64,000 nucleotides of DNA from Candidatus Oxydemutatoraceae bacterium (GTDB lineage: Bacteria; Pseudomonadota; Gammaproteobacteria; Poriferisulfidales; Oxydemutatoraceae). Shown piece after piece: positions 16,342 to 62,080 of this stretch. Made by a program: the position numbers and the translations under genes. The first letter of the stretch is position 1. Every line of letters begins with the position of its first letter. The notes under the pieces were generated by a model that was given only the letters and a program-made list of their open reading frames with translations, had not been told where the DNA came from and ran no database searches. Where the stretch lies: positions 96,001 to 160,000 of the forward strand of contig CBDCOZ010000002.1 in the NCBI GenBank assembly GCA_965220085.1, read 5' to 3'.

Positions 16342-16901
16342 CCCCCTCACCGACCCGCTGCGCTCGCCGACTCTCCCGCGAGGGGAGAGTAAGCGTGTCC
16401 CGCGCAATCCGTGGCGCACCCCCTCACCGACTCGCTGCGCTCGCCGACTTTCCCACGAGGGGAGAGTAAGCATGTCCCGCGCAATCCGTGGCGCACCCCC
16501 TCACCGACTCGCTGCGCTCGCCGACTTTCCCGCGAGGGGAGAGTAAGCATGTCCCGCGCAATCCGTGGCGCACCCCCTCACCGACTCGCTGCGCTCGCCG
16601 ACTCTCCCGCGAGGGGAGAGTAAGCATGTCCCGCGCAATCCGTGGCGCACCCCCTCACCGACTCGCTGCGCTCGCCGACTCTCCCGCGAGGGGAGAGTAA
16701 GCGTGTCCCGCGCAATCCGTGGCGCACCCCCTCACCGACTCGCTGCGCTCGCCGACTCTCCCGCGAGGGGAGAGTAAGCGTGTCCCGCGCAATCCGTGGC
16801 GCATCCCCTCACCGACTCGCTGCGCTCGCCGACTCTCCCGCGAGGGGAGAGTAAGCGTGTCCCGCGCAATACGGTGCGAGTGTTGAGTCATCCGTTTAAG
16901 C
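16342..16901. repeat. 77-bp tandem array (7 units) carrying the hairpin CTCTCCC-GCGAG-GGGAGAG
   Basis: Units at 16342, 16419, 16496, 16573, 16650, 16727 and 16804; near-identical, no unique spacers. Confidence 0.95.
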
Positions 16902-16975
16902 GACGAAAAGCTCTAGCGCCGCGCCCAGGTCTCCCACCTACTCCGGCGGGGCAAAGGTTTAAGCGACGAAAAGTT

Positions 16976-18067
16976 TTACCGCCGCGCCCAGGTGTAGCGT
17001 TCTTTTAGCGCATTCCCGCACGAGAATTTTATTTTTCTGTCGTGTTGCAGACGGCCAACGACAATGCCCGGGGCGATGCCTATCTTATCGGCGAAGTCCT
17101 CAATGGCTTGAAGCGGGTATCCGCCAAGCCCCTCCTCAAGCAGAAACGCGTTGTACTCTGCCGGCGGGATAAGCATATTGCGCGCAAAAACATCAGCCTC
17201 TTCCTCCTCCTTTTCATACATCACACCACATTCCAAAAAAACTTTCTTGCGGCCGTGTTTGAGGATGTGCCCCGCCTCATGGAAAAAGGCGAACCACAGT
17301 TGGTCGTTGCTCTTGTAGCGCAGGCTCAGTTGAATCATCGCCTTGCCGTCAAACCAGCGTGTGCATCCGGACACCTTTGTCTTGGGCAGTTCGGGAACAA
17401 AAACCAAGGCGACACCGGCTTGCGCACAGTCCCGAATTAACTGCGGCTGAAAAACTTCGGGCTGTTCCCGCGTTAATTCCCGCGCCCGATTCAGCGCTTG
17501 TCTAAAAGCCGCGCGGTTGAAATTCGGGATGTCCATTTCAAGAGCCTCTATTTCTCCGCGACGGAGCCAGGCCGAAAGGGCATAGGAGTTCGCCTCAAAT
17601 CGCGCGGCTTGGCGGTAGGCTATTTTGGAAGCAACCTTCCATTGCGCCGGCGAAGCGATGCCGAAGAACTGCAGCACACTGTCGAGTTGATCTGTCGGAT
17701 TTCGGCGCTTGGCAATCCAGTCTTGTTTGATCATCTGCGCCACGGGAAACTTCTTGAGCCAGTTCAACCGGCCTTGCAGGCGCTTTTGCTCCGCCTGCCT
17801 GGCTTTAATGTCGTCATGATTTTGCTGCAGAGCGCTCCAAAAGTACGAAGGCTTATTGAATATGCGATGCAATTTGATGGCGGTGTCGGCCGTCACCGGC
17901 GCCTTGCCGCGGATGATCTCGTTAATCGCCTTCTTGCTGAGACCGGTGCGACCGGCCAACTCAACCTGCGTCATCCCGTAAGCCGCCAAATACTCCCCCA
18001 GCAATTCGCCGGGATGCGTAGCGGTGTCGGGGCGATAGTCGCTCTGACGAAGTGCGCTACTTGCCAT
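16976..18067 (-). CDS. higA: HigA-family XRE antitoxin fused to an ImmA/IrrE-type metallopeptidase domain
   Basis: HPGELL..MTQVELAGRTG..INEIIRG HTH; FFHEAGH (HExxH) and EEEADVFA; start overlaps the toxin stop. Confidence 0.88.
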   Translation of the reverse strand: MASSALRQSDYRPDTATHPGELLGEYLAAYGMTQVELAGRTGLSKKAINEIIRGKAPVTADTAIKLHRIFNKPSYFWSALQQNHDDIKARQAEQKRLQGRLNWLKKFPVAQMIKQDWIAKRRNPTDQLDSVLQFFGIASPAQWKVASKIAYRQAARFEANSYALSAWLRRGEIEALEMDIPNFNRAAFRQALNRARELTREQPEVFQPQLIRDCAQAGVALVFVPELPKTKVSGCTRWFDGKAMIQLSLRYKSNDQLWFAFFHEAGHILKHGRKKVFLECGVMYEKEEEEADVFARNMLIPPAEYNAFLLEEGLGGYPLQAIEDFADKIGIAPGIVVGRLQHDRKIKFSCGNALKERYTWARR

Positions 18068-18913
18068 GGGTATTCTCCACTCCGAGAATTTCAATGGTGT
18101 CTGCCTGTTTCCAATCCAGTCCTCCGTCGGGTTTTCTTGGGATGGGATTGTGAGCGGGCACAAATATCAAGCGCTGAATATCCGTTAAATCGACCGACAA
18201 CTGACATTGCCGCCCGCGCTTGCCGCCGGTCAACTCATGACAGCGCGCCGGAGGAGTTTTGGGAGGCCCCATGTCCGCAAGCGTTTTGGCGGCGGCTAGT
18301 TCGGCCATGCGTCTGCGTATTTTTTTGACCATGCTACCATACTCTTTACTTAAGATTGCGTTCGCTGTTAAAAGTTTTCTCAAGTTTTTTCGTTCGGGAT
18401 TGTGAGCGGGCACAAATATCAAGCGCTGAATATCCGTTAAATCGACCGACAACTGACATTGCCGCCCGCGCTTGCCGCCGGTCAACTCATGACAGCGCGC
18501 CGGAGGAGTTTTGGGAGGCCCCATGTCCGCAAGCGTTTTGGCGGCGGCTAGTTCGGCCATGCGTCTGCGTATTTTTTTGGCCATGCTACCATACTCTTTC
18601 TTAAGATTGCGTTCGCTGTTAAAAGTTTTCTCAAGTTTTTTCGTTCGGAAATGTGAGCGGGCACAAATATCAAGCGCTGAATATCCGTTAAATCGACCGA
18701 CAACTGACATTGCCGCCCGCGCTTGCCGCCGGTCAACTCATGACAGCGCGCCGGAGGAGTTTTGGGAGGCCCCATGTCCGCAAGCGTTTTGGCGGCGGCT
18801 AGTTCGGCCATGCGTCTGCGTATTTTTTTGGCCATGCTACCATACTCTTTCTTAAGATTGCGTTCGCTGTTAAAAGTTTTCTCAAGTTTTTTCGTTCGGA
18901 AATGGATAACCAT
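18057..18913 (-). pseudogene. higB: HigB/RelE-type toxin gene disrupted by an internal ~251-bp triplication
   Basis: MVIHFRTKKLEKTFNS..PPARCHELTG..LSVDL..RLIFVP present three times (periods 251 and 252 nt); the ATG-started frame misses the native C-terminus. Confidence 0.8.
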
Positions 18914-19231
18914 ATTAGATAAGTTTAAGCACTATTCTACCATACTCATAGCAGAAAAAAGTAAACCCCATGCGTTATCTTTTTTAAGGCCCCCTCGTGT
19001 CGGAGGCCAAGCAAAATCGGGAGCGCCAAAGCCCTTTTGCCCTATTCAAAACCGCAGATTCGCCGATGGGCTTGAGCGCTTAGGCCGGCAGATTGCGGTC
19101 TTGGCATGGCAGACGGTGCGGAATTGGTTGCGGCGATTTGTATCAAGCCCTCTTCTGAAGGGAGCGGTTTAGTAAGAATCTCCTCTCGCACTAACCGCAC
19201 TCCGCCTTCGCAGGGGAATTACTCGCACTAA

Positions 19232-21241: not shown

Positions 21242-21246
21242 AACGG

Positions 21247-32587: not shown

Positions 32588-33495
32588 CAGTGACTACTGC
32601 CTTGCTGCTGTCTGTGCTTGTTGGTCAGGTAGGCGGCGAATGAAGCGCAGGCACCGTACATGAACAGGGCTTCGTCCAAGCCGACAGATATACTCTTTTC
32701 TGACATAGCGTGACGAATACCTGTCCTGCTATTGCTTGTATATCTGTACAATTTTTTAAATGCATCTTTAAGAAATTCATGCTCTAACAAGCCGTCTTTC
32801 TCAAGAATATCCAACGCTTGGCCAAGAGATGCCTCTTCCTTTCGCGTGATCTTGCGCGCTACAGATTCAACGGCATGGATACTATCTGCAATGGAATCTC
32901 TGTATTGTCGGGTGTCAATATGCTTTGCCGCACCGCGCAGGTGCGTTGACGCCCCGACCATTCCACTTTTGTGCACAGCTTCAACGGCTTTTTGCGTGGC
33001 TTCGCCCGCTTCTTTGCTGGCACGAGGCACAATCTGGTATGGCTTCTTTGACATATCTAGCCAATAAGCTGCTTCATACTTGTCAAGTAAGCTCTTCACC
33101 CAATAAGAGAAAGAATTGATTGCCGTCACTATGTCTGCCCTGCCTATCTTCTCCAACGCGCCCATGTTTACATCCTCATTCGCAACATGCTCAATAAAAT
33201 TGAGAACTTCATTGAACTCTCCTTCCAGAACAGTAGTTTTAAGTGTACGCATAACCTCATCATGGGGTATGGGTATGTGTCTATCATCTACCAATAAGAC
33301 TTCGTTTTTCAGCTTATCCAAAATACGCTTACAAAATTCCTCATGTACATAAGAGGAGTTAATAGGTGGTGCAATCATGAGGCGGAAACAATTCCATATT
33401 TCTTTGCGCAAATCATCGGAAAGGTGCTCCAAGCGCATTGGTTCGGGCAACGGCTCGTAGCCGTATCTTTGCGAGAAAGTCAGTTCCTTTGCCAT
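32587..33495 (-). CDS. AbiJ-NTD4-like abortive infection family protein
   Basis: N-terminal FSQRYGYEPLP..LS.DLR.EIWN; C-terminal SIHAVES, LY.YTS..GIRH (RH, HEPN-like). Confidence 0.7.
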   Translation of the reverse strand: MAKELTFSQRYGYEPLPEPMRLEHLSDDLRKEIWNCFRLMIAPPINSSYVHEEFCKRILDKLKNEVLLVDDRHIPIPHDEVMRTLKTTVLEGEFNEVLNFIEHVANEDVNMGALEKIGRADIVTAINSFSYWVKSLLDKYEAAYWLDMSKKPYQIVPRASKEAGEATQKAVEAVHKSGMVGASTHLRGAAKHIDTRQYRDSIADSIHAVESVARKITRKEEASLGQALDILEKDGLLEHEFLKDAFKKLYRYTSNSRTGIRHAMSEKSISVGLDEALFMYGACASFAAYLTNKHRQQQGSSH

Positions 33496-41670: not shown

Positions 41671-41683
41671 CACAATTCCTATC

Positions 41684-42244: not shown

Positions 42245-42412
42245 AGGTTAAAGCAAAAATGTATTAACAATCAATGCGCACATTATATACATACAATCAA
42301 TGCGCGCTTGGCATGCATATCATATAAATTACCTATGGTGGCATCTGTATATCCTTTAATAAGCCGCATATGCGGTCTATGCATTCGGTCAAAGAACCTT
42401 GGCAAAGCGCGG

Positions 42413-42519
42413 AACCTTGCCATCGCTACGGTGCGATTGTCAGATACGGCGAGAGCCGTTTTCGCGATGCCCACAGCAACAGCAAGCCCGGAACAGCCAT
42501 CACCGCTGTCAGAACAAAG
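42413..42519 (-). repeat. Diverged copy of the ampG 3' end (107 bp)
   Basis: Aligns to 43448-43554. Confidence 0.92.
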
Positions 42520-42542
42520 GGACGCAAGAGACTCGGTCAAAG

Positions 42543-42992: not shown

Positions 42993-43239
42993 TCTGTTGT
43001 TCCATGGCGCGGCGAATATAACCACCGACCCGCTGCCAGTCGCCGGCTAAGGCTTTGGCATCATCGTGGAAAGAAGGCAAGTTCTTCTCGGTGAAGCGTT
43101 TGGGCGCAGGATATATTTGGAATGCGGATGTCCTCAAGTATGCCTTGCGCCGACCCTTGGAGAACTCAAGTTTGGGCGCAGGGGATATTGGGAATACGGA
43201 TGCCATCCCGCGCAAGTAGTGTTTTATCTTTTCTGTCAT
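42946..43239 (-). CDS. Small protein upstream of the DUF2335 gene
   Basis: D..AL..DW..VG motif; overlaps the DUF2335 start. Confidence 0.75.
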   Translation of the reverse strand: MTEKIKHYLRGMASVFPISPAPKLEFSKGRRKAYLRTSAFQIYPAPKRFTEKNLPSFHDDAKALAGDWQRVGGYIRRAMEQQNVQEKDIQAQATDIK

Positions 43240-43460
43240 AACAATCTTTAATGTGTTATCAGCATCAAGCGACTTACTATTATAGTACAAAGTTCAGAAT
43301 GCTTGGTTTTGTCTGTTACCAATACATATTACACTGAGGACAAAATTTGTGCAATTCGGGTCATTATGGCTTATTTTCCTTCTAAAGGTGTCCAAACCAA
43401 GCTGTCGAAAACAAGCCGGAACGCTCAAAAATCCGCCACCGATGTAGAACCTTGCCATCG

Positions 43461-44858: not shown

Positions 44859-45652
44859 GTCGCGGATGTCACAGAAATGGCGGGCGGCAGTTTGTAGTCT
44901 ATTATCAGCGGCGCGTGATCGGAGAAGAAGCGCTCCTTGTAGATGCGCGCTTTGTCGGCGCACCCGCGCAAGGCCGGGGATGTCACGTGATAGTCGATGC
45001 GCCAGCCGACATTCTTCGCCCGCGCCTGTCCGCGGTTTGACCACCAGGTGTACTGGTCGGGGCCGGGGCAGACTTCGCGAAAGGCGTCGTTGTAGCCGGC
45101 CTCATCAAACAGCCAGTCCAGCCAGGCGCGCTCCTCGGGCAGAAAGCCGGAATTTTTTCTGTTGCCGCGCCAGTTTTTCAAGTCTGTCTCTTTGTGCGCG
45201 ATGTTCCAGTCGCCGCAGATGATGTAGTGGCGTTTGCGCCGCTTGAGGGCGAGCAGGTGCGATTTGAATTCGTCCAAGAAGCGAAACTTGGCTTGCTGTC
45301 GTTCGTCGCTTGAGGAACCCGACGGCGCGTAGAGCGAGATGACAGAGAGATTTTTGAACTGCGCCTCGATGTAGCGGCCTTCGCTGTCAAACTCGCGGCT
45401 GCCAAAGCCGGCAATCACTTTGCGCGGCTTGTGGCGGCACAGCAGGCCGACGCCGCTGTAACCTTTTTTGAGCGCGCCGTGATAGTGGCAGCGGAACGCT
45501 TTGGGATGAAAGACCGTATCCGACAGTTGCTCGGGCTGGGCTTTGAGCTCCTGAATGCAGACGAAATCCGCCTTCTGTCGCGCAAGCCAGGCGAAGAAGC
45601 CCTTGGCGTTGGCGGAGCGGATGCCGTTGGCGTTGAAACATATTATGCGCAT
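44855..45652 (-). CDS. xth: Exodeoxyribonuclease III
   Basis: NANGIRS, CIQELK, GYSGV, GDWNIAH, YTWWS, GWRIDY, SDHAP. Confidence 0.95.
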   Translation of the reverse strand: MRIICFNANGIRSANAKGFFAWLARQKADFVCIQELKAQPEQLSDTVFHPKAFRCHYHGALKKGYSGVGLLCRHKPRKVIAGFGSREFDSEGRYIEAQFKNLSVISLYAPSGSSSDERQQAKFRFLDEFKSHLLALKRRKRHYIICGDWNIAHKETDLKNWRGNRKNSGFLPEERAWLDWLFDEAGYNDAFREVCPGPDQYTWWSNRGQARAKNVGWRIDYHVTSPALRGCADKARIYKERFFSDHAPLIIDYKLPPAISVTSAT

Positions 45653-45786
45653 AGGCTCATCGTCGGCTTGGCGCGGTTGCGACTGTTTTCCTGTTTGTGG
45701 CGGCGCTTGTTCATGGCTACTTTGGTCGCCGACCTTTCCTTTCGGAATTGAGGCCGGCCTTACATCATAATAGCGCAGAGACTATA

Positions 45787-47865
45787 ATGGCAGAAATTTT
45801 TTCCATAAAAGTGGCTTCAATTTTTAGATTATATGCCAGCACGACATTTTGGGTGTTTATGCTTGCGCTAAGCTCGGCGGCGCTTGCCGATGAGCCGCGG
45901 AACTATTGCCCGGCCGAGCAGTCGGCGCGAAGCGGCGACAGAGAGATGGGGGTGTCCGCCGACAGGGTCGGCGCGCGCGAGAAAGGGATGTCGATGCTGG
46001 AGGGCAATGTGCAACTCAATTTGAGCGCCGCGCTCGTTCGCGCCGACAAGGTGACGTATGACTCGCAGAGCGAGCGCGTCAAAGCCAAGGGCGATGTGCG
46101 TTATACCAACTGCGATCCGAAAGACCCGTGGTGGTTTATTTCCGCCGATGAGGTTTCTTATGACGTTGCGAACAATCAGGGGCGGGTCAAAAATGCGTGG
46201 TTGCATTTTCTCGATGCGCCGGTTTTCTATCTGCCCCGCTATCGGTTCTCCACCAGCGATTCGGTGCGCCGAAGCGGCTTTCTGGCGCCGGAGATAGGCA
46301 ACTCCAGCACGTCGGGGCGCGAGATCAGCGCGCCGTTCTACTTTGACTTGGCGCCGAACAAAGACATCACCTTTGAGCCGCGGTATTACAGCAAACGGGG
46401 GACGCAACTCAATGTTGAGTCGCGCTATTTGTACAAGTTGGATCGCGGCAATTTTGAATTTTCCACGCTGGACGACAGCGAGTTCGATCAGGAGCGACAC
46501 GCCTATAAGTACAACCATGTTTCCGCCGTCGGCGACAAGTTTTCGGCAGAGCTCGACTTGCAGTATGTGTCCGATGACGAGTATCTGGAAGACTTCGGCA
46601 GAGGATTTAATGTGTACGGCGAGTCGTATCTGCGCAGCCACGCCACGATGAACTGGTTCTACCGCGGCTGGAATATGACACTCTCCGGCGAGCGCTTGGC
46701 GCGCTCCAGCGATGACGTATCGCCCGCGCGCCCGTATCAAAAGCGCCCCCGCTTTTCCGTCGGCAGACGGTTTGATCTGGATGACACCGGTCTGAGCGTC
46801 GGCGTGTTGTCGGACACCGCCGAATTCGCGAACAAGAACTCCTTTATTGCGGATGCCGCCGGCATGCAAACCGTTGTCCCCAAAGGCACGCGCTTTCACA
46901 ACGAGGCGGATATGCGGTGGTCGTATCGCCGTCCGGGGTTTCACGTTACGCCGCAAGTCTCTGTGCATCATACGCGCTACAAGCTGCGTCGCACCGACGA
47001 CCACAACCGCACCGTGCCGTCTTTTAGTTTGCGCACCGGGCTGGTATTTGAGAAAGACCACAGCCGCTATCGCCACACCCTTGAGCCCGAACTTTTTTAC
47101 CTCAATGTGCCCTACCGCGCGCAGGATGACTTGCCCGATTTTGATACCTCCGAGAGCGAGTTTCGCTTTGCGCGGTTGTTTGACAGAAACCGCTTTAACG
47201 GTATCGATCGCATCGGGGATGCGGATCAGGCGACCGCCGCCCTCACGTCGCGTCTGCTGCACAAGCGCAGCGGGATTGAAGCGTTGCGCATGAGCCTTGG
47301 CCGCACATTTTATTTTCGCAGCCGGCGGGTGAACTTGCCCGCCGCCGCCGGCGCGCCGCTGTCGGCGGCGCGCGAGAACAAGTCCGACCTCGCCGGCGAG
47401 GTCGCGATTAATCCGAATAGCAAGGTGCGGTTTCTGTCGTCGTTGATCTGGGATAGCGAAGAAAACGAGACCGAGCGGAGTATGCTGATGGCGTCGCTCA
47501 ATGGCGGCGAGGCGTATTCGGCGAATCTGTTTTTCGGACACAAGCGGGATGACTTTGAGCAGGCGGGAATCAGCGCGAACTTTCCGCTCGGCGGCAACTG
47601 GAAACTCTTCGGCGCGGCGTCGTATGATGTGGACAGCAAGAAATCGCTGAACACGCTTGCGGGGATCGAATACAACGATTGCTGTTTTAGCGCCAGAATA
47701 GGGTTCCAGCGGCGTTTGAACGATGTCACCGGCGAGGGCGGAGAAATAAGCGCCGGCGGATTGAGCCATGACAACTTTATCGGTTTGCAATTAAACTTGC
47801 ACGGCGTCGGAAGGGTCGGCGATGATGTGAGCAGTATGATTAAGAACTCCAGCTTTTTGCAGTGA
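45787..47865 (+). CDS. lptD: LPS assembly protein LptD
   Basis: YT.C.P, RRSGFL.P, PFYFDLAPN.D, LEPELFYL.VPY..Q, LF..NRF.G.DRI, EY.DCC; upstream of surA. Confidence 0.92.
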   Translation: MAEIFSIKVASIFRLYASTTFWVFMLALSSAALADEPRNYCPAEQSARSGDREMGVSADRVGAREKGMSMLEGNVQLNLSAALVRADKVTYDSQSERVKAKGDVRYTNCDPKDPWWFISADEVSYDVANNQGRVKNAWLHFLDAPVFYLPRYRFSTSDSVRRSGFLAPEIGNSSTSGREISAPFYFDLAPNKDITFEPRYYSKRGTQLNVESRYLYKLDRGNFEFSTLDDSEFDQERHAYKYNHVSAVGDKFSAELDLQYVSDDEYLEDFGRGFNVYGESYLRSHATMNWFYRGWNMTLSGERLARSSDDVSPARPYQKRPRFSVGRRFDLDDTGLSVGVLSDTAEFANKNSFIADAAGMQTVVPKGTRFHNEADMRWSYRRPGFHVTPQVSVHHTRYKLRRTDDHNRTVPSFSLRTGLVFEKDHSRYRHTLEPELFYLNVPYRAQDDLPDFDTSESEFRFARLFDRNRFNGIDRIGDADQATAALTSRLLHKRSGIEALRMSLGRTFYFRSRRVNLPAAAGAPLSAARENKSDLAGEVAINPNSKVRFLSSLIWDSEENETERSMLMASLNGGEAYSANLFFGHKRDDFEQAGISANFPLGGNWKLFGAASYDVDSKKSLNTLAGIEYNDCCFSARIGFQRRLNDVTGEGGEISAGGLSHDNFIGLQLNLHGVGRVGDDVSSMIKNSSFLQ

Positions 47866-47875
47866 GCGAGAATTG

Positions 47876-49141
47876 ATGAGAAGACGCATAGTTGAAATTT
47901 TTATCTGTGGCCTGATAATTTTTTCGGGCGCGGGCGTTGCCGCCGAGCGGACGCTCGACCGCATCGTTGCGTTTGCCGCCGACCGCGCGATCACCGAGCG
48001 CGAGTTGCGAGCGGGGGTGTCGCGGTTTGCGAATATGCTCGAGCAGCAGGGCCGGGAAGTTCCCGCTCGGGAAATGCTGGTCGGCGAAGTGCTGCAAAAG
48101 ATGATTATCCGCGCGCTGCAACTGCACGAAGCGGAGCGCTTGGGCATGGTGGCCGATGAGGCGAGCGTGGAGCGGGCGATAGAGAGCATCGCCGAAAAAA
48201 ATAATATGACGCTCGCGGAAATGCGCCGAGCGATGGAGGAGCAGGGCGAGGATTACAAGACCTTTCACAACAAGGTGCGCGAGGATTTGTTGATCAGGCG
48301 GGTGCAACAGCGCGAAGTGGTGGAGCGGATTAATGTGAGCGATGCGGAGATACGCCGCCGCTTGTATGCGTCGGGAGAGGATGTTGCGTTTCGCTATTCG
48401 TACTTGCGCGTCGCCGTCGGGACAGAAAAGAGCGGACGGAGCCCCGAACGGTTGCTTGCGAGCATTAAAAGGCGCGCCGCTGAGGGCGGCGAGTTCCTTG
48501 AGTTGGCGCGCGAAGCGGCGCAAACGGACGGCGCGGAGCTCATCCGTTCGGGGTGGCGCGCGAGCGCGCAGATGCCGGCGGCCATTGCCAAGCGGGTGGT
48601 CGCGATGGAAGTCGGCGCGGTCGCGCCGATTATCAAAACGCCGAAGCATCTGTATCTGCTGCGCCTCGATGCGCGGCGCAAGGAGGGCGAGGCGCCGGTG
48701 ATGCAACGCCAATACCGTGTGCGACATATCTTGATTGCTCCGAATGTGATGGATACCGATGAGATAGTGCGGAAGAAACTGCGCAAGATGAAGCGGCGGA
48801 TTGAGAACGGCGCCGACTTTGCGCGCTATGCAAAGCGCTACTCGCAGGACCCCGGCAGCGGTTTCAAAGGCGGCGATTTGGGCTGGATTGACTTGCGGAA
48901 CATGGTCGCGGAGTTTTCCGAGAAAGTGCGCGCCGCCCGCAAGGGCGAACTCGTCGGCCCCTTCCGCACCCAATACGGATGGCATCTGTTGCGGGTGTCG
49001 GATACGCGCGAACAAGATATGAGCGAGCAACTCGAGCGCGCCGGCGTGATCGCAGAGATTCGTCAGGAAAAGGCGGAAGCGGAAATCAATGCCTGGCTTT
49101 TGCGTTTGCGCGAAAGATATTATGTCGATGTAAGGCTGTAG
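47876..49141 (+). CDS. surA: Periplasmic chaperone / PPIase SurA
   Basis: LDRIVA, VRHILI, YSQDPGS..GGDLGW, YGWHLL; conserved lptD-surA-pdxA order. Confidence 0.92.
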   Translation: MRRRIVEIFICGLIIFSGAGVAAERTLDRIVAFAADRAITERELRAGVSRFANMLEQQGREVPAREMLVGEVLQKMIIRALQLHEAERLGMVADEASVERAIESIAEKNNMTLAEMRRAMEEQGEDYKTFHNKVREDLLIRRVQQREVVERINVSDAEIRRRLYASGEDVAFRYSYLRVAVGTEKSGRSPERLLASIKRRAAEGGEFLELAREAAQTDGAELIRSGWRASAQMPAAIAKRVVAMEVGAVAPIIKTPKHLYLLRLDARRKEGEAPVMQRQYRVRHILIAPNVMDTDEIVRKKLRKMKRRIENGADFARYAKRYSQDPGSGFKGGDLGWIDLRNMVAEFSEKVRAARKGELVGPFRTQYGWHLLRVSDTREQDMSEQLERAGVIAEIRQEKAEAEINAWLLRLRERYYVDVRL

Positions 49142-49188
49142 CCGCGTGTCGATCAAAACGGATATCGGATAGGCCGACGGAGGGGCGG

Positions 49189-50181
49189 ATGACAAACGCT
49201 GAGCGCAGACCCGAGACGATAGCGATTACCATCGGCGAGCCCGCCGGTATCGGGCCTGATATCGTCGTCGCCTTGGCGCATATCGCCTTTGATGCGCGGC
49301 TTGTCGTCTTGGGTGATGCGGAGCTTTTGCGCGCCCGTGCGCGCGCGCTGAATATTGCGCTGAAGACGGAGACCTTTGACCGCGATACGGCGGGAGCGCA
49401 CCGAGGCGACGGACATCTTACGGTGTTGCCGCTGCCGGTTGCGGCGCCGGTGCGAGCGGGCGAGATCGATTCGGCGAATGCGCGCTATGTCTTGCAACTG
49501 CTCGATCGCGCGGCGCGCGGTTGTCTGGCGGGCGAGTGGCAGGCGCTGGTAACCGGCCCGATTCACAAGGCGGCGGTGATGCAAGCCGGAATTTCGTTTG
49601 CCGGCCATACCGAGTATCTGGCGCAGTTGTGCGGGGCGCCGACGGTGATGCTGCTTGCGAACGATAAGCTGAAGGTCGCGCTGGCAACGACTCACTTGCC
49701 GCTAAAAGATGTTCCCGGGCGGATTACGCAAGACGGTTTGGAGCGGGTGATGCGCATCGTGCGCCGTGATTTTGTCGAGCGGTTCAAAATTGCAACGCCG
49801 CGCATCGGTGTCTGCGGGCTGAACCCGCACGCCGGCGAAGCGGGGCATCTGGGCGCGGAGGAGCGGGAGATCATTGAACCGCTGATACGCAAATTGCAGC
49901 GCGAACGGTTTGACCTGACCGGGCCGCTGTCGGCGGATACGGCGTTTACCGACGAGAGTATCAAGCGTTACGATGTCATCGTTGCGATGTTTCACGATCA
50001 GGGCTTGCCGGTGATAAAGCGGATGGGATTTGGCGAGACGGTAAACATCACCTTGGGCCTGCCGTTTGTCCGCACCTCGGTGGATCACGGTACCGCATTG
50101 GAGCTCGCCGCAAGCGGCAAGGCTTCTTGTGGCAGTCTTGTCGCGGCGGTACGGCGGGCGATCGCATTGTGCCGGGCGTAA
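49189..50181 (+). CDS. pdxA: 4-hydroxythreonine-4-phosphate dehydrogenase
   Basis: GEPAGIGPD, GHTEYL, GLNPHAGE, MFHDQGL, RTSVDHGTA. Confidence 0.96.
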   Translation: MTNAERRPETIAITIGEPAGIGPDIVVALAHIAFDARLVVLGDAELLRARARALNIALKTETFDRDTAGAHRGDGHLTVLPLPVAAPVRAGEIDSANARYVLQLLDRAARGCLAGEWQALVTGPIHKAAVMQAGISFAGHTEYLAQLCGAPTVMLLANDKLKVALATTHLPLKDVPGRITQDGLERVMRIVRRDFVERFKIATPRIGVCGLNPHAGEAGHLGAEEREIIEPLIRKLQRERFDLTGPLSADTAFTDESIKRYDVIVAMFHDQGLPVIKRMGFGETVNITLGLPFVRTSVDHGTALELAASGKASCGSLVAAVRRAIALCRA

Positions 50182-51037
50182 GAGCATGGCGGTACGCAAA
50201 CGCTTCGGCCAACATTTTTTACGCGACCCGCAGATTGTCGGGCGGATCATAGATCTGATCACGCCGCCGCCCGATAACCGCGTGGTTGAGATAGGCCCCG
50301 GGGAAGGCGCGCTGACGCTGCCGTTGCTGCGGCGCGGCGCACGTGTTGATGCGTCGGAGCTCGCCGCAAGCGGCAAGGCTTCTTGTGCCAGTCTTGTCGC
50401 GGCGGTACGGCGGGCGATCGCATTGTGCCGGGCGTAAGAGCATGGCGATACGCAAACGCTTCGGCCAACATTTTCTACGCGACCCGCAGATTGTCGGGCG
50501 GATCATAGATCTGATCACGCCGCCGCCCGATAACCGCGTGGTTGAGATAGGCCCCGGAGAAGGCGCGCTGACGCTGCCGTTGCTACGGCGCGGCGCGCGT
50601 GTTGATGCGTCGGAGCTCGCCGCAAGCGGCAAGGCTTCTTGTGGCAGTCTTGTCGCGGCGGTACGGCGGGCGATCGCATTGTGCCGGGCGTAAGCGCATG
50701 GCGATGCGCAAACGCTTCGGCCAACATTTTCTGCGCGACCCGCAGATTGTCGGGCGGATCATAGATCTGATCACCCCGCTGTCGGCGGATACGGCGTTTA
50801 CCGACGAGAGCATCAAGCGTTACGATGTCATCGTTGCGATGTTTCACGATCAGGGCTTGCCGGTGACAAAGCGGATGGGGTTTGGCGAGACGGTCAATGT
50901 CACCTTGGGCCTGCCGTTTGTTCGCGCCTCGGTGGATCACGGTACCGCATTGGAGCTCGCCGCAAGCGGCAAGGCTTCTTGTGGCAGTCTTGTCGCGGCG
51001 GTACGGCGGGCGATCGCATTGTGCCGGGCGTAAGCGC
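50100..51037 (+). repeat. Three extra copies of the pdxA-3'/rsmA-5' junction (256, 256 and 340 bp) forming chimeric ORFs 50186-50437, 50442-50693 and 50698-51033
   Basis: gagctcgccgcaagc at 50101, 50357, 50613 and 50953. Confidence 0.9.
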
Positions 51038-51823
51038 ATGGCGATGCGCAAACGCTTCGGCCAACATTTTCTGCGCGACCCGCAGATTGTCGGGCGGATC
51101 ATAGATCTGATCACCCCGCCGCCCGATAACCGCGTGGTTGAGATAGGCCCCGGGGAAGGCGCGCTGACGCTGCCGTTGCTGCAGCGCGGCGTGTGTGTTG
51201 ATGCGATAGAGATAGACCGGGACTTGGCCGCGCGCTTGCCCAGTGTCGAGCCCGCCGCCGGTCGCCTGCGCGTGTTTTGCGAGGACGCGCTCGCTTTTGA
51301 TTTCGCATCGCTTGCCGATGCGCGCGCGATTAGGCTCATCGGCAATTTGCCATACAACATATCGACCGCGTTGTTGTTTCGCCTGATGCGTTTCCGCCCG
51401 TGTATCGGCGACATGTATTTTATGCTTCAGCGCGAGGTCGCGCATGGTTTGGCAGCGCCCGCCGGCGCCGCGGATTACTCGCGGCTGAGCGTGATGGCGG
51501 CGTATTGTTTTGAGACCGCCGTGCTGTTTGATGTGCCGCCCGCCGCGTTTCATCCGCCGCCCGCCGTTGTCTCCGCCTTTGTCCGCATGTTGCCGCGTCC
51601 GGGGGTGTCGCCGGAGAAGACAGCCGCATTGGACGCGCTCGTCAAACGCGCTTTTTCCAAACGCCGCAAGACGATTGCCAATGCGCTGGCGCCGTTGTTT
51701 GATGAGGCCGCCTGGCGGCGCATGAACATCAATCCCGCTATGCGTCCCGATGCGGTGTGCGTCGATGACTACCTTCGCATGGTAGAATATCTTTCGCTTG
51801 CGCCAAGCAATTCGGGAGAATAA
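51038..51823 (+). CDS. rsmA: 16S rRNA dimethyladenosine transferase
   Basis: [41 protein letters not shown]. Confidence 0.95.
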   Translation: MAMRKRFGQHFLRDPQIVGRIIDLITPPPDNRVVEIGPGEGALTLPLLQRGVCVDAIEIDRDLAARLPSVEPAAGRLRVFCEDALAFDFASLADARAIRLIGNLPYNISTALLFRLMRFRPCIGDMYFMLQREVAHGLAAPAGAADYSRLSVMAAYCFETAVLFDVPPAAFHPPPAVVSAFVRMLPRPGVSPEKTAALDALVKRAFSKRRKTIANALAPLFDEAAWRRMNINPAMRPDAVCVDDYLRMVEYLSLAPSNSGE

Positions 51824-52206
51824 TGATGACTTCAAAACGCTATGAGATCAGTGTGGATGTTGAAACACAGTATATAGAGGAACAGTCCGACAGTTCCGAG
51901 GGCCGCTATGTTTTTTCTTACCGGATAACGATTCTTAACGAGGGCAATGTCACCGCACAATTGCTTTCCAGACATTGGGTCATTACCGACTCTAATCAAA
52001 AGACACAAGAGATTCGCGGCGACGGGGTTGTCGGCGAACAACCGCGTTTGGGGCCGGGCGCGACATTCCATTACACCAGCGGCACGGTCTTGGAAACTCC
52101 TTTCGGCACGATGCGCGGCAGTTATCGGATGCTGGCCGAAGACGGCACCGAGTTTGAAGCGCCGATCAAAGAGTTCATCCTGACCGCGCCGCGCACGCTG
52201 CACTGA
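51823..52206 (+). CDS. apaG: ApaG protein
   Basis: YVFSY.ITI.N, QLLSRHWVITD, GVVGEQP, YTSG. Confidence 0.96.
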   Translation: MMTSKRYEISVDVETQYIEEQSDSSEGRYVFSYRITILNEGNVTAQLLSRHWVITDSNQKTQEIRGDGVVGEQPRLGPGATFHYTSGTVLETPFGTMRGSYRMLAEDGTEFEAPIKEFILTAPRTLH

Positions 52207-52260
52207 GGCGCGTCCGCGCCCGAACCTTTCCGGTCGCGGCGGCATTCCTGAGAGCGAACC

Positions 52261-53073
52261 ATGAGTCTTTATGCGATAGGCGATGTGCACGGTTGCTACG
52301 ACTGCTTGCAACGCTTGCTCGAGAAGATTGCTTTTGATCCGGTTGCGGATGAGTTGTGGTTTAGCGGGGACTTGGTCAATCGCGGCGATAAATCGCTTGA
52401 GGTGTTGCGCTTTGTCAAGGGGCTGGGCGCCGGCGCTGCTTGCGTTCTGGGCAATCACGAGTTCCATTTGATGCGCTTTGCTCTCGGCCTGTCCGAGACG
52501 CGCGATGCCGGTTTGCGCGCGGCGCTGGCGGCGGATGACCGCGATGAATTGCTCGAGTGGTTGTATCAGTGTCCGCTGGCGCGGGTTGCCGAGCGGCAAA
52601 AATTGATCATGGTGCACGCGGGCTTGTTGCCGCAGTGGGATGTCCGGACGGCTTTGCGTTTGTCCGACGAAGTGAGCGCGCAGCTCGCCGATGCCGATAG
52701 CAGGCAGATGTTTTTTGAAACGTTGTATGGCGACCGGCCCGACTGTTGGGACGCGAAACTTACCGGCATGGATCGCTTGCGGGTGGCGGTCAATGCGATG
52801 ACCCGCATGCGCTATCTGAATGAGCGGACGATGGCGATGGCGCTTTCGTGCACCGAGGCTCCGGGGCAACAGCCTGCGGGGCTGCGCCCTTGGTATGCCT
52901 TTGCGCATCCGCGCGAGGGCTATACGACGCTTTACGGGCATTGGGCGAGTCAGGGGTTTCGGCGCGGGAGCGATACCATCGCTTTGGATTCGGCGTGTGT
53001 TTGGGGGGAGCGGCTCAGCGCTATGCGCCTGGATGACGGGCGCGAGCGGTTGTTTCAGGTTGAATGCGGCTGA
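52261..53073 (+). CDS. apaH: Symmetrical diadenosine tetraphosphatase
   Basis: GDVHGC, GDLVNRG, LGNHE, VHAG, GHW, LDSACVWG. Confidence 0.95.
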   Translation: MSLYAIGDVHGCYDCLQRLLEKIAFDPVADELWFSGDLVNRGDKSLEVLRFVKGLGAGAACVLGNHEFHLMRFALGLSETRDAGLRAALAADDRDELLEWLYQCPLARVAERQKLIMVHAGLLPQWDVRTALRLSDEVSAQLADADSRQMFFETLYGDRPDCWDAKLTGMDRLRVAVNAMTRMRYLNERTMAMALSCTEAPGQQPAGLRPWYAFAHPREGYTTLYGHWASQGFRRGSDTIALDSACVWGERLSAMRLDDGRERLFQVECG

Positions 53074-53074
53074 T

Positions 53075-53569
53075 TCAAGCGGCGCGCAAGATGCGCTCCA
53101 GCTTCTCAAAGCGCATAGCGTAGTCGTTGTTCTCATCCGCCGCGTGTTCGCCATCGGCGCAGACCGTCCATTCGCTTTCATCGATTTGCGGGAAGTAAGT
53201 ATCGCCTGCTATGGTCACATCCAGGCGCGTTCGGTAGATGCGTTGTGCCCGGCCCAAAAAGAGCCGGTAGGTCTCGGCGCCGCCGATGACAAAGCATTCG
53301 CGAGAGCCGATCAGTTCGCCTAGCGCAGCGGGGGAAGAGATGACTTCGCACGCGGGCGGCGCCGCGATGCCGCTGCGGCTCAGGATGATATTGCGCCGCC
53401 CCGGCAATGGTTTTGCCAGCGATTGAAAGGTCTTTCTGCCCATGACGATAGGGTGTCCCAAGGTGATTTTCTTGAAGCGTCGCAAGTCGGCGGACAGGCG
53501 CCACGGCATCTTTCCGTTCATGCCGATCACACGGTTTTGCGAATAGCAGGCGATGATGGAAAGGTTCAT
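53075..53569 (-). CDS. folA: Dihydrofolate reductase
   Basis: VIG..MPW.LSADL..FK, MGRKTF, PLPGR.NIILS, IGGAE, GDTYFP. Confidence 0.95.
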   Translation of the reverse strand: MNLSIIACYSQNRVIGMNGKMPWRLSADLRRFKKITLGHPIVMGRKTFQSLAKPLPGRRNIILSRSGIAAPPACEVISSPAALGELIGSRECFVIGGAETYRLFLGRAQRIYRTRLDVTIAGDTYFPQIDESEWTVCADGEHAADENNDYAMRFEKLERILRAA

Positions 53570-53571
53570 GT

Positions 53572-54366
53572 TCAAACCGCAACGGGGGCCGCGATGTGAT
53601 CGTGCGGCCGATAGTTTTGCAACACGATATCTTCGTAGCGAAATGCAAACAGGTCTTTGCGGTCGGGGTTTAGTTCCAATGTCGGCAAGGGCTTGGGTTC
53701 GCGCCCGAGTTGCGTTTTTGCCTGTTCGATATGGTTGCAATACAGGTGCGCATCGCCGAGGGCATGTATCAACTCGCCGCAACCGAGACCGCACACTTGC
53801 GCCATCATCTTTAACAGCAGGGCATAGGATGCGATGTTGAACGGCACGCCGAGAAAGACATCGGCGCTGCGCTGGTAGAACTGACACGATAACTTGCCGT
53901 CCGCGACATAGAACTGCATCAGCACATGGCACGGCAGCAGACGCATCTGCGCCAGCTCGCCGACATTCCACGCGCTGACGAGCATGCGTCTGGAATCGGG
54001 GTCGCTGCGAATCGTATCTATCACTTGCCGCAACTGGTCGATGTGCGCGCCGTCGGCCGTGCCCCAGCGCCGCCATTGTTTGCCGTAGATGGGGCCGAGC
54101 TCGCCGTTTTCATCGGCCCACTCGTCCCATATGGACACGCCGTTTTGTTTCAGGTAGGCGGTGTTGGTGTCGCCTTTTAGAAACCACAACAACTCGTGCG
54201 CGACGGATTTGAAATGCAATTTTTTTGTCGTCAGCAACGGGAAGCCGTCGTCCGGCGAATAGCGCGATTGCCAACCGAACAGGGAGAGCGTTCCGGTGCC
54301 GGTGCGATCGGTTTTTTGGGCGCCGGAACAAAGAACGGATTCGAGAAGTTTGAGATAGGTGCGCAC
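53572..54366 (-). CDS. thyA: Thymidylate synthase
   Basis: [42 protein letters not shown]. Confidence 0.97.
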
Positions 54367-54410
54367 TGGTCCGAATTGAGTAAGCGATAAATTCTAGCAC
54401 ACTGTTATCA

Positions 54411-54829
54411 TTCCCCCTCGCCGCATCGCCCATCGCTTTCGGCTCGTGCTCTGCGACTCTCCCGCGAGGGGAGAGTGATACTCGCACGAACAATACTCTC
54501 CCCTCGCGGGAGAGTCAATGTGGCGAAGCCACATTGGAGAGGGGGGATGCTTCTATCTCGCGCTACCGTCGTGCAAGCCGGAAGCTTTCCCCCTCGCCGC
54601 ATCGTCCATCGCCTTCGGCTCGTGCTCTGCGACTCTCCCGCGAGGGAGAGTGATACTCGCACGAACAATACTCTCCCCTCGCGGGAGAGTCAATGTGGCG
54701 AAGCCACATTGGAGAGGGGGGATGCTTCTATCTCGCGCTACCGTCGTGCAAGCCGGAAGTTTTCCCCCTCGCCGCATCGCCCATCGCCTTCGGCTCGTGC
54801 TCTGCGACTCTCCCGCGAGGGGAGAGTGA
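54411..54829. repeat. BIME-like array of ~176-bp units (about 2.4 copies) with REP hairpins in alternating orientation
   Basis: Units at 54411, 54587 and 54762. Confidence 0.9.
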
Positions 54830-54874
54830 CGCGCACTGACACTGTGCGAGGAGGGAGTGATTACGGCGGTGCGA

Positions 54875-55660
54875 TCAGCGCGGCGCTCGGTTCGGGTTTG
54901 CAAACAACAGCCACACTCCGAGCAGGAATAACGGCACAGACAGCGCTTGTCCGATCGTCAGCCAGCCCCAGGCGATGAAACCGATGTGGGCATCGGGTTC
55001 GCGGAAAAATTCGACCGCAAACCGCGCCGCTGCGTAGAGGATCGCAAACCACGCGCTGACCCGCCCGAGCGCTCTCGGTTTGCGCGAGTAAATCCACAAC
55101 ACGACAAACAACACGACCCCTTCAAAAAAGAATTCGTACAGTTGCGACGGGTGGCGCGGCAGCGGGCCGGCGCGGGGGAAGACCATCGCCCACGGCGCGT
55201 CGCTGACGCGCCCCCACAATTCGCCGTTTATGAAATTGCCGATACGACCGGCCCCCAGTCCAATCGGGACTAATGGTGCGGTGAAGTCCGTTACCTCAAG
55301 GAAGCGAAGCTTATTTTTGCCGGCAAAAACCCACAGCGCGAGCAGTACGCCGACGAGTCCGCCGTGGAAGCTCATGCCGCCTTCCCAGATAAAAAATATG
55401 CTGATAGGGTCGGCGAGCAATGCGCCGAAGTTATACGCGAGCATATAGCCGACCCGCCCGCCGACGATGGCGCCGATGATGCCGCAGAAAAGCAGGTCGC
55501 TGACTTGCTCGCGCGCGATCTCTGCGCGGGGGGCTTTGGCGCGATGGTGTCCGAGCGCCAGGAACGCGCCGAAGCCGAGCAAGTACATCAGGCCGTACCA
55601 GTGAACCCGAAGCGGCCCGATGGCGATGGCAACGGGGTCAATCTGCGGGTATTCAAGCAT
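54875..55660 (-). CDS. lgt: Prolipoprotein diacylglyceryl transferase
   Basis: HWYGLMY, GGMSFHGG, GRIGNFINGELWGR, RHPSQLYE, EFFREPD. Confidence 0.97.
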   Translation of the reverse strand: MLEYPQIDPVAIAIGPLRVHWYGLMYLLGFGAFLALGHHRAKAPRAEIAREQVSDLLFCGIIGAIVGGRVGYMLAYNFGALLADPISIFFIWEGGMSFHGGLVGVLLALWVFAGKNKLRFLEVTDFTAPLVPIGLGAGRIGNFINGELWGRVSDAPWAMVFPRAGPLPRHPSQLYEFFFEGVVLFVVLWIYSRKPRALGRVSAWFAILYAAARFAVEFFREPDAHIGFIAWGWLTIGQALSVPLFLLGVWLLFANPNRAPR

Positions 55661-55720
55661 GTTTGTCCGGCGCTAAGTAAATTGCTTGCTTCATATCAGT
55701 CCGTTATTATAATGGCAATT

Positions 55721-56749
55721 ATGGACAAGAAGCTTTTTTGCATCATGGAGCAGGGTGCGTTGATAAACCAAGAACTCACGCTCGAACGCAAGCGGCAGTT
55801 TGCCAAGCCCTATTGCGACTTCTATCGCGTCAACTGGCATAGGCGAGGCGACCCCAACGCGCAATGGACGCTGAAATATTCCCAAGTGTCCGAGAATCGC
55901 AACTTCATGTATGAGAAGACCCGCGGCAAGTACGAATACTATATATTCTCCGACGATGATATTCGTTTCAGCGCCGCGGACGGCGGCGATGTGGCGGAGG
56001 CGATCAAACGCGATCTCTTGGACTATCGGCCGGTTTTTGCCGGCTTCTTTTCTGCTTTGCGATACAAAAAGCCGCTGGACAGAACGCAGCGCGTCAAGTG
56101 CGGGGTCATCCACGATATGGATTGCATCGTTTGCAACGCAAGTTTTGCCGACGCTTGTTTTCCGGTTATTTATCACGGTGTCGATTGGACGCAGGATTAT
56201 ATGTACTACCTCGCCTTGCGACTGTGCCCCGAGAAGTACCATATTTATTTGGATGTGGAAGCGCAAAACACCCGCTACCATTGGCTCGATGCCGAGACCC
56301 CGCACCACAACAACCCGTTTGATGTGCGCCCCGACCTGATCAAACTGGCGTTGCCCGAACACCGGCAAGGGATGGAGGAATATTTTGAGTTTCGCCACAG
56401 GTGTTTCAACGACCAGGGTTTTAGGGAAGAGAACAAAGTGTTCGGCATGTGGTTCAACGAAGACTGCGCGCCGGATAGCGCGCCGCGAGATATCACGCCG
56501 GCCGAAGTTGGCACGGTGCTCAATGTCAAGCATCCGGACTTTGTCAATAGAAAAGTTCGGCTGTCGTTTTCTGACCGCGCCAAGCGGCTCTATTTGCGCA
56601 AAATGTTCCACCGGTGGTTCGCCGCGCGCTGCCCGCGCGATTCCGTCATCCGCCGCGCTCTGCGTTTCGTATTTCCGCTGAATACGCGGATATGGATGTT
56701 GTGCGCCTATGCCAGAGTCGTATCTTTTTGTTTGCGGCTGAGTCGCTAA
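55721..56749 (+). CDS. Hypothetical protein, possibly a GT-A fold glycosyltransferase
   Basis: S.NRN and YEYYIFSDDDI (DxD) motifs; start placed after lgt, TATAAT 7 nt upstream. Confidence 0.6.
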   Translation: MDKKLFCIMEQGALINQELTLERKRQFAKPYCDFYRVNWHRRGDPNAQWTLKYSQVSENRNFMYEKTRGKYEYYIFSDDDIRFSAADGGDVAEAIKRDLLDYRPVFAGFFSALRYKKPLDRTQRVKCGVIHDMDCIVCNASFADACFPVIYHGVDWTQDYMYYLALRLCPEKYHIYLDVEAQNTRYHWLDAETPHHNNPFDVRPDLIKLALPEHRQGMEEYFEFRHRCFNDQGFREENKVFGMWFNEDCAPDSAPRDITPAEVGTVLNVKHPDFVNRKVRLSFSDRAKRLYLRKMFHRWFAARCPRDSVIRRALRFVFPLNTRIWMLCAYARVVSFCLRLSR

Positions 56750-61099: not shown

Positions 61100-61173
61100 G
61101 GGCGCGTAGCTCAGCCGGTTAGAGCACCACCTTCACATGGTGGGGGTCGTTGGTTCGAATCCATCCGCGCCTA
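61100..61173 (+). tRNA. tRNA-Val (CAC), CCA not encoded
   Basis: gggcgcgtagctcagccggttagagca-ccacc-tt-cac-at-ggtgg..ggttcgaatcc; one mismatch in the T stem. Confidence 0.93.
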
Positions 61174-61204
61174 TCGCCTTGTGCCTATCGCCTTGGCCCA
61201 GCAA

Positions 61205-61549
61205 TCAATAGCCGCCTTTGCGGCGGCTTTCGGGCAAGCCCGCGATGCGCCCGGCCTGCTTGCTCGGGTCTTTCGGGAACAAGTCGTACAAGTCTTTCGC
61301 GCCGACGCCTTTGTCGCCCCACTTCGCTTGCATCGCTTTGACTATGTTGCGCGTGTTGGGTTGGTTTTCGTTATTGTTGAGAAACTCCTCGCGCAAATAA
61401 TTCAGCACATCCCAATGTTTGTCCGTCAGCGCCAGATCGTCGGATCGGGCAATCGCTTCGGCGACATCGGGCGTCCAATCCTGCGCATTGAGCAGATAGC
61501 CGTTGTCATTCGTTTCGATTTCTTTGTCTTTTACCGCTAATGTCGGCAT
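61205..61549 (-). CDS. TusE/DsrC-family protein with no cysteine (RspA-like)
   Basis: GYL..DWT..VA.AIA, LTDKHW.V..YLR, LY.LFP..P.KQA.RIAGLP; ends RRKGGY. Confidence 0.88.
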   Translation of the reverse strand: MPTLAVKDKEIETNDNGYLLNAQDWTPDVAEAIARSDDLALTDKHWDVLNYLREEFLNNNENQPNTRNIVKAMQAKWGDKGVGAKDLYDLFPKDPSKQAGRIAGLPESRRKGGY

Positions 61550-61659
61550 CGTTTTTGTCTCCTGATAAAAGTTGAATGGATAAGTGAGGCGATAATTTTA
61601 CCACTTTCCCGTAAGCTATCCTTTTCCCTCACAAAGGCAGAGTATTGCACAGCGCTAAC

Positions 61660-62080
61660 CATTACTCCCCCTTGCGAGGGAGTCGAGGCGTCTCCCTGTT
61701 CGGTAGCATGTTGATACCACATTACTCCCCCCTTGCGGGGGAGTCGGTGCGAGGGGATGGCTCGCGCTATCGCAACGGGCCATTACACCCCCTCGCAGGA
61801 TGCCAGCAGCGCTCTCCCCTCGCGGGAGAGTCGGGTTGGCATGCCGCCGCTTTTTGCGCCGCCCTTGTGGCACTCCCCCCTCGCGGGAGAGTCGGCGTAG
61901 CACAGCTTCGCCGGAGAGGGGGAAGGAGCAGACTTCAATGCGCTTTGTGTCTTCACCAAACCTTGCCTCCTCGCCGCATCGTCCGTCCTCTGCGGCTTGT
62001 CCTCTGCGCTTGGCGCAAGCCGGAAACTTTCCCACAAGGAGGTTTCGCCGGCGGAGCAATTCTCCCGCAAGGGGAGAGTA
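61660..62080. repeat. Cluster of REP-family hairpins; 61660-61894 has a CRISPR-like 60-61 bp period
   Basis: Repeats at 61660, 61720, 61781 (degenerate), 61807 and 61868; 34-nt interveners; inverted hairpin near 62061. Confidence 0.75.

Follow-up and report, generated by a model that had tools for sequence, protein, structure and literature searches.

Spacer-sized gene fragments between duplicated flanks in a Candidatus Oxydemutatoraceae genome: a probable natural record of off-array Cas1-Cas2 integration

When the adaptation proteins Cas1 and Cas2 of a CRISPR system were over-produced in Escherichia coli, off-target integrations into the chromosome were recorded (Nivala, Shipman and Church, 2018; 10.1101/148544, PMC7054753, PMC6698737), and the genesis of new arrays by this route, termed neo-CRISPR, was proposed (10.1101/148544, PMC7054753). 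In 10.1101/148544 the earlier natural evidence, which came from two other species, is called 'circumstantial'. Cas1-Cas2 of Pyrococcus furiosus carries out full-site integration at non-CRISPR sites 30 bp apart, a distance equal to the repeat length (PMC6698737). Off-array integration has so far been demonstrated chiefly in vitro or with E. coli proteins that were over-expressed, and a keyword search of the open-access literature, which was not exhaustive, returned no natural genome with many such events. Here, we report on a stretch of 64 000 nucleotides (nt) from a Candidatus Oxydemutatoraceae bacterium (contig CBDCOZ010000002.1, positions 96 001 to 160 000; hereafter the window), in which short gene fragments lie between two copies of their flank. 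The family is sponge-associated.

An earlier note on this DNA had described four such sites and proposed a candidate new process. All four are present as described, with periods of 60-72 nt confirmed by sequence reading and by a repeat finder, and they belong to a genome-wide class of arm-insert-arm units, a real and statistically strong observation. We put at about 70% the probability that the units are old full-site spacer integration products of Cas1-Cas2 outside arrays. The process itself is not new, because off-target integration by Cas1-Cas2 was already reported by Nivala, Shipman and Church in 2018 as neo-CRISPR; yet natural records of it as rich as this genome would be unusual. According to this reading, an integrase would be loaded with a processed prespacer, in many cases excised from the chromosome of the cell itself. 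It would attack both strands of a target that is not CRISPR DNA, at points separated by about one repeat length (36 bp), and gap filling would duplicate the stretch in between. The product would be arm, insert and arm, and its period would be the sum of repeat and spacer; units would then decay by point mutation, and slippage would expand some of them into tandem arrays that keep the period. As the arms are not CRISPR repeats, no guide RNA would come from the inserts, and self-derived inserts would therefore be tolerated off-array while absent from real arrays.

The closest described case is the neo-CRISPR of E. coli type I-E, which likewise combines a spacer-sized insert with a repeat-sized duplication outside an array in the presence of Cas1-Cas2. 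The events described here differ from that case in three respects: they are natural, old and about fifty per genome; many inserts are self-derived and have identifiable donors; and there are several geometries, suggesting several systems, some of them now lost. The E. coli off-target sites are also said to resemble the native locus, whereas our targets are not clearly similar to the resident repeats. The feature that the proposed mechanism shares with P. furiosus in vitro is a pair of attacks on opposite strands of non-CRISPR DNA, one repeat length apart; the sites in that study had positionally conserved repeat bases and G or C at the points of attack (PMC6698737), and no such motifs could be shown here.

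Other known arrangements share some features. Canonical arrays and solitary mini-arrays have the same repeat-spacer-repeat layout and the same periods, but the arms here are unique to their locus, usually present in two copies, 5-15% diverged and unlike the resident repeats, and the units do not lie beside cas genes or a leader. Clusters of repetitive extragenic palindromes (REPs), or bacterial interspersed mosaic elements, are approached only at site 4, where a palindrome family of 259 copies supplies the arms; those of sites 1-3 are unique and non-palindromic, and even at site 4 the middle piece is Sel1-like. Transposons also duplicate the target directly around inserted DNA, but their duplications measure 2-15 bp, compared with about 36 bp here, and our inserts are gene fragments of 24-36 nt with no element of their own.

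Units in the window and across the genome

Positions without a contig label are those of the window; the others refer to the three contigs (C1, C2 and C3; 2.49 Mb in total) of the window's own genome (G000). At site 1, a 37-nt flank (16894-16930) is repeated with 92% identity at 16957-16993, giving a spacing of 63 nt around a 26-nt insert (16931-16956) whose source is a gene at C1:118777-118799. The arms of site 2, each about 37 nt long, start at 36669 and 36741 (36669-36705 and 36741-36778) and differ by one indel; the spacing is 72 nt, and the 35-nt insert (36706-36740) is a copy from a giant cadherin-domain gene (C3:1779849 and its sister repeats). The first arm includes the start codon and 5' leader of a DNA methylase gene of 1058 aa (33495-36671, minus strand), and by our own reading of the sequence the second arm and the insert appear to create a new upstream reading frame of 17 codons. 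Both sites were seen by the repeat finder as well as by reading.

Site 3 lies within a small gene that has paralogues (42946-43290, minus strand). Its arms (43098-43135 and 43170-43207), located by repeat finder and alignment, measure 33-38 nt, are 84-88% identical and are spaced by 72 nt, so that the unit equals 24 codons, in frame; for the insert between them (43136-43169) no donor was found in this genome. At site 4, arms of 24-27 nt (61660-61685 and 61720-61746), spaced by 60-61 nt, enclose an insert (61686-61719) that resembles Sel1 repeat units, the closest being at 3635 and 28348. Both arms belong to the dispersed REP-like palindrome family, whose 259 copies are often spaced 60-61 nt apart, and a duplication of the flank is therefore not demonstrable at this site. 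The arms of sites 1-3, in contrast, have no second copy anywhere in the genome. Rfam and tRNA scans of the window returned two tRNAs only and no RNA family at any of the four sites. Two weaker cases had also been listed: at 9797 the arms reach only about 15 nt, under our threshold, and nothing was seen near 24620.

As the earlier note had suggested, we scanned the genome for close direct repeats. Pairs of segments in which 21 or more of 24 bases agree, with offsets of 40-120 nt, were collected over all three contigs and fell into 297 loci, compared with about zero expected in random sequence. In a first pass, 84 of these were single arm-gap-arm units, with spacings of 60-69 nt in 38, 70-79 nt in 15, 50-59 nt in 14 and all other values together in 17. 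Arms that occur nowhere else in the genome were found in 46 of the 84, and 34 of these 46 units have spacings of 60-72 nt. When offsets were widened to 25-400, 48 of 132 isolated pairs fell within the 15 offsets from 60 to 74 and 84 were spread across the remaining 361, a per-offset excess of approximately 14-fold and a sharp peak.

A set of 53 units in the spacing peak was used for the measurements of arms, inserts and donors. By crude gene calls of our own, 36 of them are intergenic, nine lie at gene edges and eight are in coding regions. Arm length defined by similarity has a median of 34 nt and a mode of 36-37 nt (n = 53). The mismatches between arms comprise 123 transitions and 64 transversions, the usual excess for decay, and become more frequent towards the arm ends. 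As canonical arrays the units fail: the arms are locus-specific, mostly in two copies and separated by 2-6 mismatches.

Empty sites bear on the claim that a flank was duplicated around an inserted fragment. The paralogue of the site 3 gene at about 41600 aligns on both sides of the unit and has a single arm (41598-41640) opposite a gap of exactly 72 columns, which equals one arm plus insert; the absence from the paralogue that the earlier note had reported is thus borne out. Five further units with a paralogous arm were compared. The unit at C3:332368 (spacing 71) faces a paralogue gap of 71, and that at C3:1895197 (spacing 62) faces gaps of 15 + 46, while the other three of the five (u80, u13 and u8) gave no clear answer. 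Orthologous empty sites could not be aligned in the relatives: even the closest genomes are from other genera, with a DNA identity of about 70%, at which intergenic DNA does not align.

Metagenomic contigs from three runs of one study were also compared with window positions 36000-55999. A low-depth contig of run X3 joins 36699 to 36805 at site 2 through 31 other letters, so that 105 nt are replaced by 31, compared with an expected loss of 72. On our reading these letters would be the end of an arm followed by diverged sequence from downstream of arm 2, that is, a single arm without an insert. A contig of run X2 has a single-arm form of the site 3 gene family, which could be a paralogue. At the likeness threshold used, such joints may stem from other organisms, and we regard them as supporting evidence, not proof. 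A metagenome scan with a 37-nt window stretch at the start of the site 2 gene gave zero matches.

Donors, resident CRISPR systems and relatives

Nineteen of the 53 inserts match the genome above the 99th percentile of shuffled inserts, compared with two of 265 shuffles. Eleven inserts are nearly identical to a gene elsewhere in the genome, through low-copy matches inside genes, which upholds the description of the inserts as short gene fragments; the remaining eight are repeat families or 17-nt matches. In BLAST searches and unit-donor alignments, the donor matches are near-exact over 24-34 nt and start and stop at the arm boundaries. Donors lie mostly on another contig or hundreds of kilobases away, on either strand.

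Within the window, the site 1 insert matches the gene at C1:118777 in 22 of 23 positions, or in 23 of 26 without gaps, where the best shuffled match is 20; this donor is two bases longer than the insert and is preceded in one orientation by a run of T (TTTN). The site 2 insert matches repeated units of the giant gene at C3:1779849 in 28/28 and 32/33 positions, and with one-mismatch extensions the homology reaches about 36 nt, giving 36 + 36 = 72. Nine Cadherin domain matches were found in a 1000-aa piece of this gene. The site 4 insert matches two Sel1 repeat units in 28 of 34 positions and four more in 27 of 34, all of them in Sel1 repeat genes, compared with at most 24 for eight shuffles. 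Elsewhere, donor matches are 30/30 for the unit at C2:189684, 25/26 at C1:62398 and 31/31 at C3:2035945. Two donors lie in the window itself: the insert at C3:1255925 (31/31; spacing 67 = 36 + 31) comes from surA, where 30-31 nt are exact (48369-48398), and that at C3:919297 (28/28; spacing 60) from the methylase gene (33539-33566).

Some observations on these loci stand apart from the donor counts. The unit at C3:2035945-2036043 (spacing 65) has a duplicated tRNA-Met 3' end: the tRNA itself remains intact, with a partial copy on the far side of the 31-nt insert, whose donor gene is at C3:153887. Open reading frames of very large size (approximately 14,200, 4,100 and 13,200 codons by crude calls) occupy C3:1770458-1826053 and C3:1344695-1384405, the first being cadherin-rich; the inserts of two units (site 2 and C2:79411) come from these giant genes. 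Three tandem arrays, at C3:1964558-1965076, C3:488968-489192 and C2:217090-217244, have periods of 61, 73 and 61 nt and contain in each unit a gene-matching piece of 30-33 nt (33/33, 29/30 and 30/33, respectively). They may be arm-insert units amplified by slippage.

The genome carries two cas1-cas2 modules. The type II-C locus consists of cas9 (1145 aa), cas1 and cas2 beside an array of 66 repeats with 36-nt repeats and 30-nt spacers, and its period is 66 nt in 58 of 65 intervals. The type V-A locus consists of cas12a, cas4, cas1 and cas2 beside an array of 64 repeats, also of 36 nt, with 26-28-nt spacers and a period of 62-64 nt in 56 of 61 intervals. A second Cas9 paralogue (1128 aa; C1:64912-68298, minus strand) is 72% identical to the Cas9 of C2. 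It has no Pfam HNH hit, a proline replaces the histidine of the HNH motif in the C2 protein, and no cas1-cas2 adjoins it; degenerate copies of the II-C repeat lie nearby (C1:64342-64440).

The resemblance to the geometry of spacer acquisition stands up to measurement, in that the inserts are spacer-sized and the modal arm of 36-37 nt compares with resident repeats of 36 nt. The arm implied by subtracting the donor homology from the spacing is 34-39 nt in nine of 14 entries and, with one-mismatch extensions read by hand, 35-37 nt in seven of 12 rechecked units; with such extensions the unit at C2:217289 becomes 36 + 34. Inserts group into lengths of 26-28 nt (two units, including site 1), as V-A spacers, and of 29-31 nt (three units), as the II-C spacers of 30 nt. 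A further group has 33-36 nt with arms of 34-38 nt, and another 33 nt with arms of 27-28 nt at spacings of 60-61 nt, into which site 4 and the C3:1964558 array, whose 61-nt unit holds 33/33 bases of a gene, would also fit. The overall span of insert lengths, 24-39 nt, is broader than that of real spacers. The unit period matches a resident array for the 62-68 classes.

In V-A adaptation, a published account describes Cas4-dependent selection of 5'-TTTN together with a ruler mechanism (PMC13034035). Both donors of the V-A length class have TTTN directly upstream in one orientation, as TTTG and TTTT (or TTTC). Among the 126 spacers of the real arrays, self matches do not exceed 16 nt, so that a protospacer-adjacent motif (PAM) could not be derived from self-targeting spacers; the result fits self-derived spacers being lethal in arrays and harmless off-array.

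Relatives provide a comparison between genomes. Groups were fixed beforehand by a Cas1 profile search in 30 relatives, and 400 kb were sampled per genome. Isolated pairs with spacings of 60-74 nt were found in all three Cas1-positive samples (6 of 16 pairs in G001, 2 of 4 in G005 and 2 of 5 in G003) and in none of the three Cas1-negative ones (0 of 15 in G009, 0 of 14 in G006 and 0 of 1 in G004). The window's own Cas1-positive genome has 5-7 such pairs per 400 kb. The spacing also follows the arrays of each genome. G005 has arrays with periods of 71-74 nt (36-nt repeat) and 66-67 nt, and both of its units have a spacing of 72 nt, with arms of 36 and 32 nt. G001 has arrays at 61, 66 and 70-73 nt and units at 61, 66, 68, 70, 71 and 72 nt, one of which (36 + 30) has a donor match of 27/30. 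Donors at no more than three mismatches were found for one of four inserts from the relatives.

Weighing the explanations

From the two resident modules, the fitting lengths and a signal that tracks both Cas1 and array period in relatives, we infer that Cas1-Cas2 catalysed the units, and among the agents named in the earlier note off-array integration by a Cas1-like enzyme remains the best candidate.

Several results weigh against this. A Hamming scan splits the inserts into those with clear donors and those matching no better than shuffled sequence, with little between, which leaves about two thirds of them without a source in this genome. In a naive control, any non-self BLAST hit was as common for inserts (14/46) as for flanking control segments (55/184); the control hits were to paralogous genes or dispersed repeats or were 16-17-nt matches. 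A stricter count (intergenic query, at least 22 nt at no less than 95% identity inside a gene) separates seven of 46 inserts from three of 184 controls, one of which overlaps the insert of a neighbouring unit, but this criterion, which excludes paralogues, dispersed repeats and 16-17-nt matches, was chosen post hoc. Two units have implied arms of only 27-28 nt. Likeness of the arms to the resident repeats reaches the 95th percentile of controls in two of 53 units for II-C and seven of 53 for V-A; their identity to the II-C repeat is no higher than that of random 36-mers, and to the V-A repeat only slightly higher. The V-A PAM rests on two donors, and a search by eye found no motif common to the donors of the other classes. 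The contrast between Cas1-positive and Cas1-negative relatives is small, being three genomes against three, all kin, at 400 kb each, and the G003 units of 64 and 67 nt miss the array periods of that genome (65-66 and 70-73 nt) by 1-2 nt.

Two further difficulties concern period and age. Spacings of 69-72 nt occur in 15 of 53 units and of 58-61 nt in 11 of 53, where the resident arrays have one of 65 and two of 61 intervals. Since the 69-72 and 60-61 classes are unmatched by resident arrays, lost CRISPR systems have to be invoked. Arrays with such periods exist in G001, G003 and G005, and we infer that these unit classes come from CRISPR systems lost from the lineage, the array types being common in the family. 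As for age, no unit has zero or one arm mismatch; 52 of 53 have 2-6, with a mode of four and one outlier at ten, and the arms differ by 11% whereas the inserts, counted by hand, differ by about 3% from their donors. Young units may be missing owing to quick loss of perfect repeats by slippage or to an old burst of activity.

Of the alternatives, a Cas-independent templated insertion survives best, and we nevertheless regard it as unlikely. A polymerase would switch template during fork stalling or microhomology-mediated repair, copy about 30 nt of a distant gene, return upstream of its departure point and recopy the flank. That the inserts copy the cell's own genes agrees with this, as does their range of 24-39 nt, broader than that of real spacers. 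Junction microhomology, which the earlier note had wanted examined, could be present: the donor homology runs 1-5 nt into the similarity-defined arm at several junctions, but the overlaps disappear when the arms are set to 36 nt. Templated insertion does not account for the duplication of about 36 nt of flank, the sharp peak at 60-74 nt, the absence of units from three Cas1-negative relatives or the presence of units at each genome's own array period. With most donors on another contig or hundreds of kilobases off, on either strand, the template-switch repair offered in the earlier note is both unneeded and disfavoured.

A more improbable explanation holds that the units are a mixed bag of decayed tandem duplications, REP clusters and coding repeats of similar period, and that the donors are chance matches or dispersed repeats. 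The scan did return 213 further loci, tandem repeats of 40-120 nt being extremely abundant in this genome; site 4 has REP-like arms, arms recur elsewhere in 38 of the 84 first-pass units, and the naive donor control was negative. However, the peak at 60-72 nt persists in the units with unique arms (34/46), donors are exact over 24-34 nt in single-copy genes and do not run past the arm boundaries, what the empty sites lack is exactly one arm and the insert, and best matches split clearly between donors and the shuffled level, with little between. For sites 1-3 this explanation is largely refuted.

Least probable is that the units are kept as functional mini-arrays giving guide or antisense RNA against the donor genes, for example through an orphan Cas6 or the HNH-altered Cas9 paralogue: the inserts are long exact matches to host genes, the arms are more diverged than the inserts, an orphan cas6 lies 340 nt from site 4 and the second Cas9 paralogue has no cas1-cas2, but eight of 53 units are inside coding regions, the arm mismatches have the transition excess of decay (123:64), and no single RNA-binding protein could recognise all units because the arms differ at every one.

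Should off-array integration by Cas1-Cas2 be the correct reading, it would operate in nature as a cost of adaptive immunity. The units would be unselected samples of what the adaptation machinery captures, largely self DNA, and plausible raw material for new CRISPR arrays and tandem repeats, and lost CRISPR systems could be inferred from their scars. A broader and much more tentative idea, which we consider somewhat doubtful, is that stray integration acts as a steady mutational force with a readable fossil record in this lineage of symbiont-like sulfur oxidisers. It would have put in-frame peptides into proteins (site 3), created upstream reading frames (site 2), duplicated a tRNA end (C3:2035945) and seeded tandem arrays of 61-73 nt; the record would preserve traces of lost CRISPR types (36 + 35 and 28 + 33) and inserts that show sampling of self DNA.

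Neighbouring genes and other repeats

The window mixes defence genes with core genes. The former include Fic, GmrSD, a methylase with AbiJ and a helicase, a SIR2-like gene and a Schlafen-like gene, and the latter lptD-surA-pdxA-rsmA. The orphan cas6 (62085-62774, minus strand; Pfam Cas6, E = 3e-58) has no other cas gene nearby. On one side of it is the REP-like cluster of site 4 and on the other a TauD-family gene, after which come dsrAB and dsrMKJOP-like genes; it could be left over from a CRISPR system since lost.

An MFS/AmpG-like gene (43461-45044) has its 3' end triplicated: copies of 122 nt with 84-90% identity lie at 38076-38197, 42406-42527 and 43441-43562. They bracket a 4.3-kb cassette with the SIR2-like gene and others and a 0.9-kb cassette with a DUF2335 gene and the site 3 gene. 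The ampG duplication pointed out in the earlier note is therefore real, as three 122-nt copies around both cassettes, but no result links it with the small units, and its scale is far outside the geometry of the integrase. The arrangement resembles successive insertions of cassettes at a single attachment site; no integrase was found.

Tandem repeats are abundant beyond the units. Across the genome, loci with tandem or complex repeats at periods of 40-120 nt number more than 200. In the window, young intergenic tandem arrays with 97-99% identity lie at 16342-16870, 4824-4981, 14725-14988, 18149-18904, 50100-50779 and 54411-54829; their unit lengths are 77, 40, 251, 256 and 175 nt, and several are built around the REP-like palindrome. 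Positions 50274-50530, in the 256-nt tandem repeat between pdxA and rsmA, are joined to 44064 in contigs of all three metagenomic runs (X1-X3), with the same 30 letters in between each time. The join probably reflects structural variation, or else a related locus present in the community.

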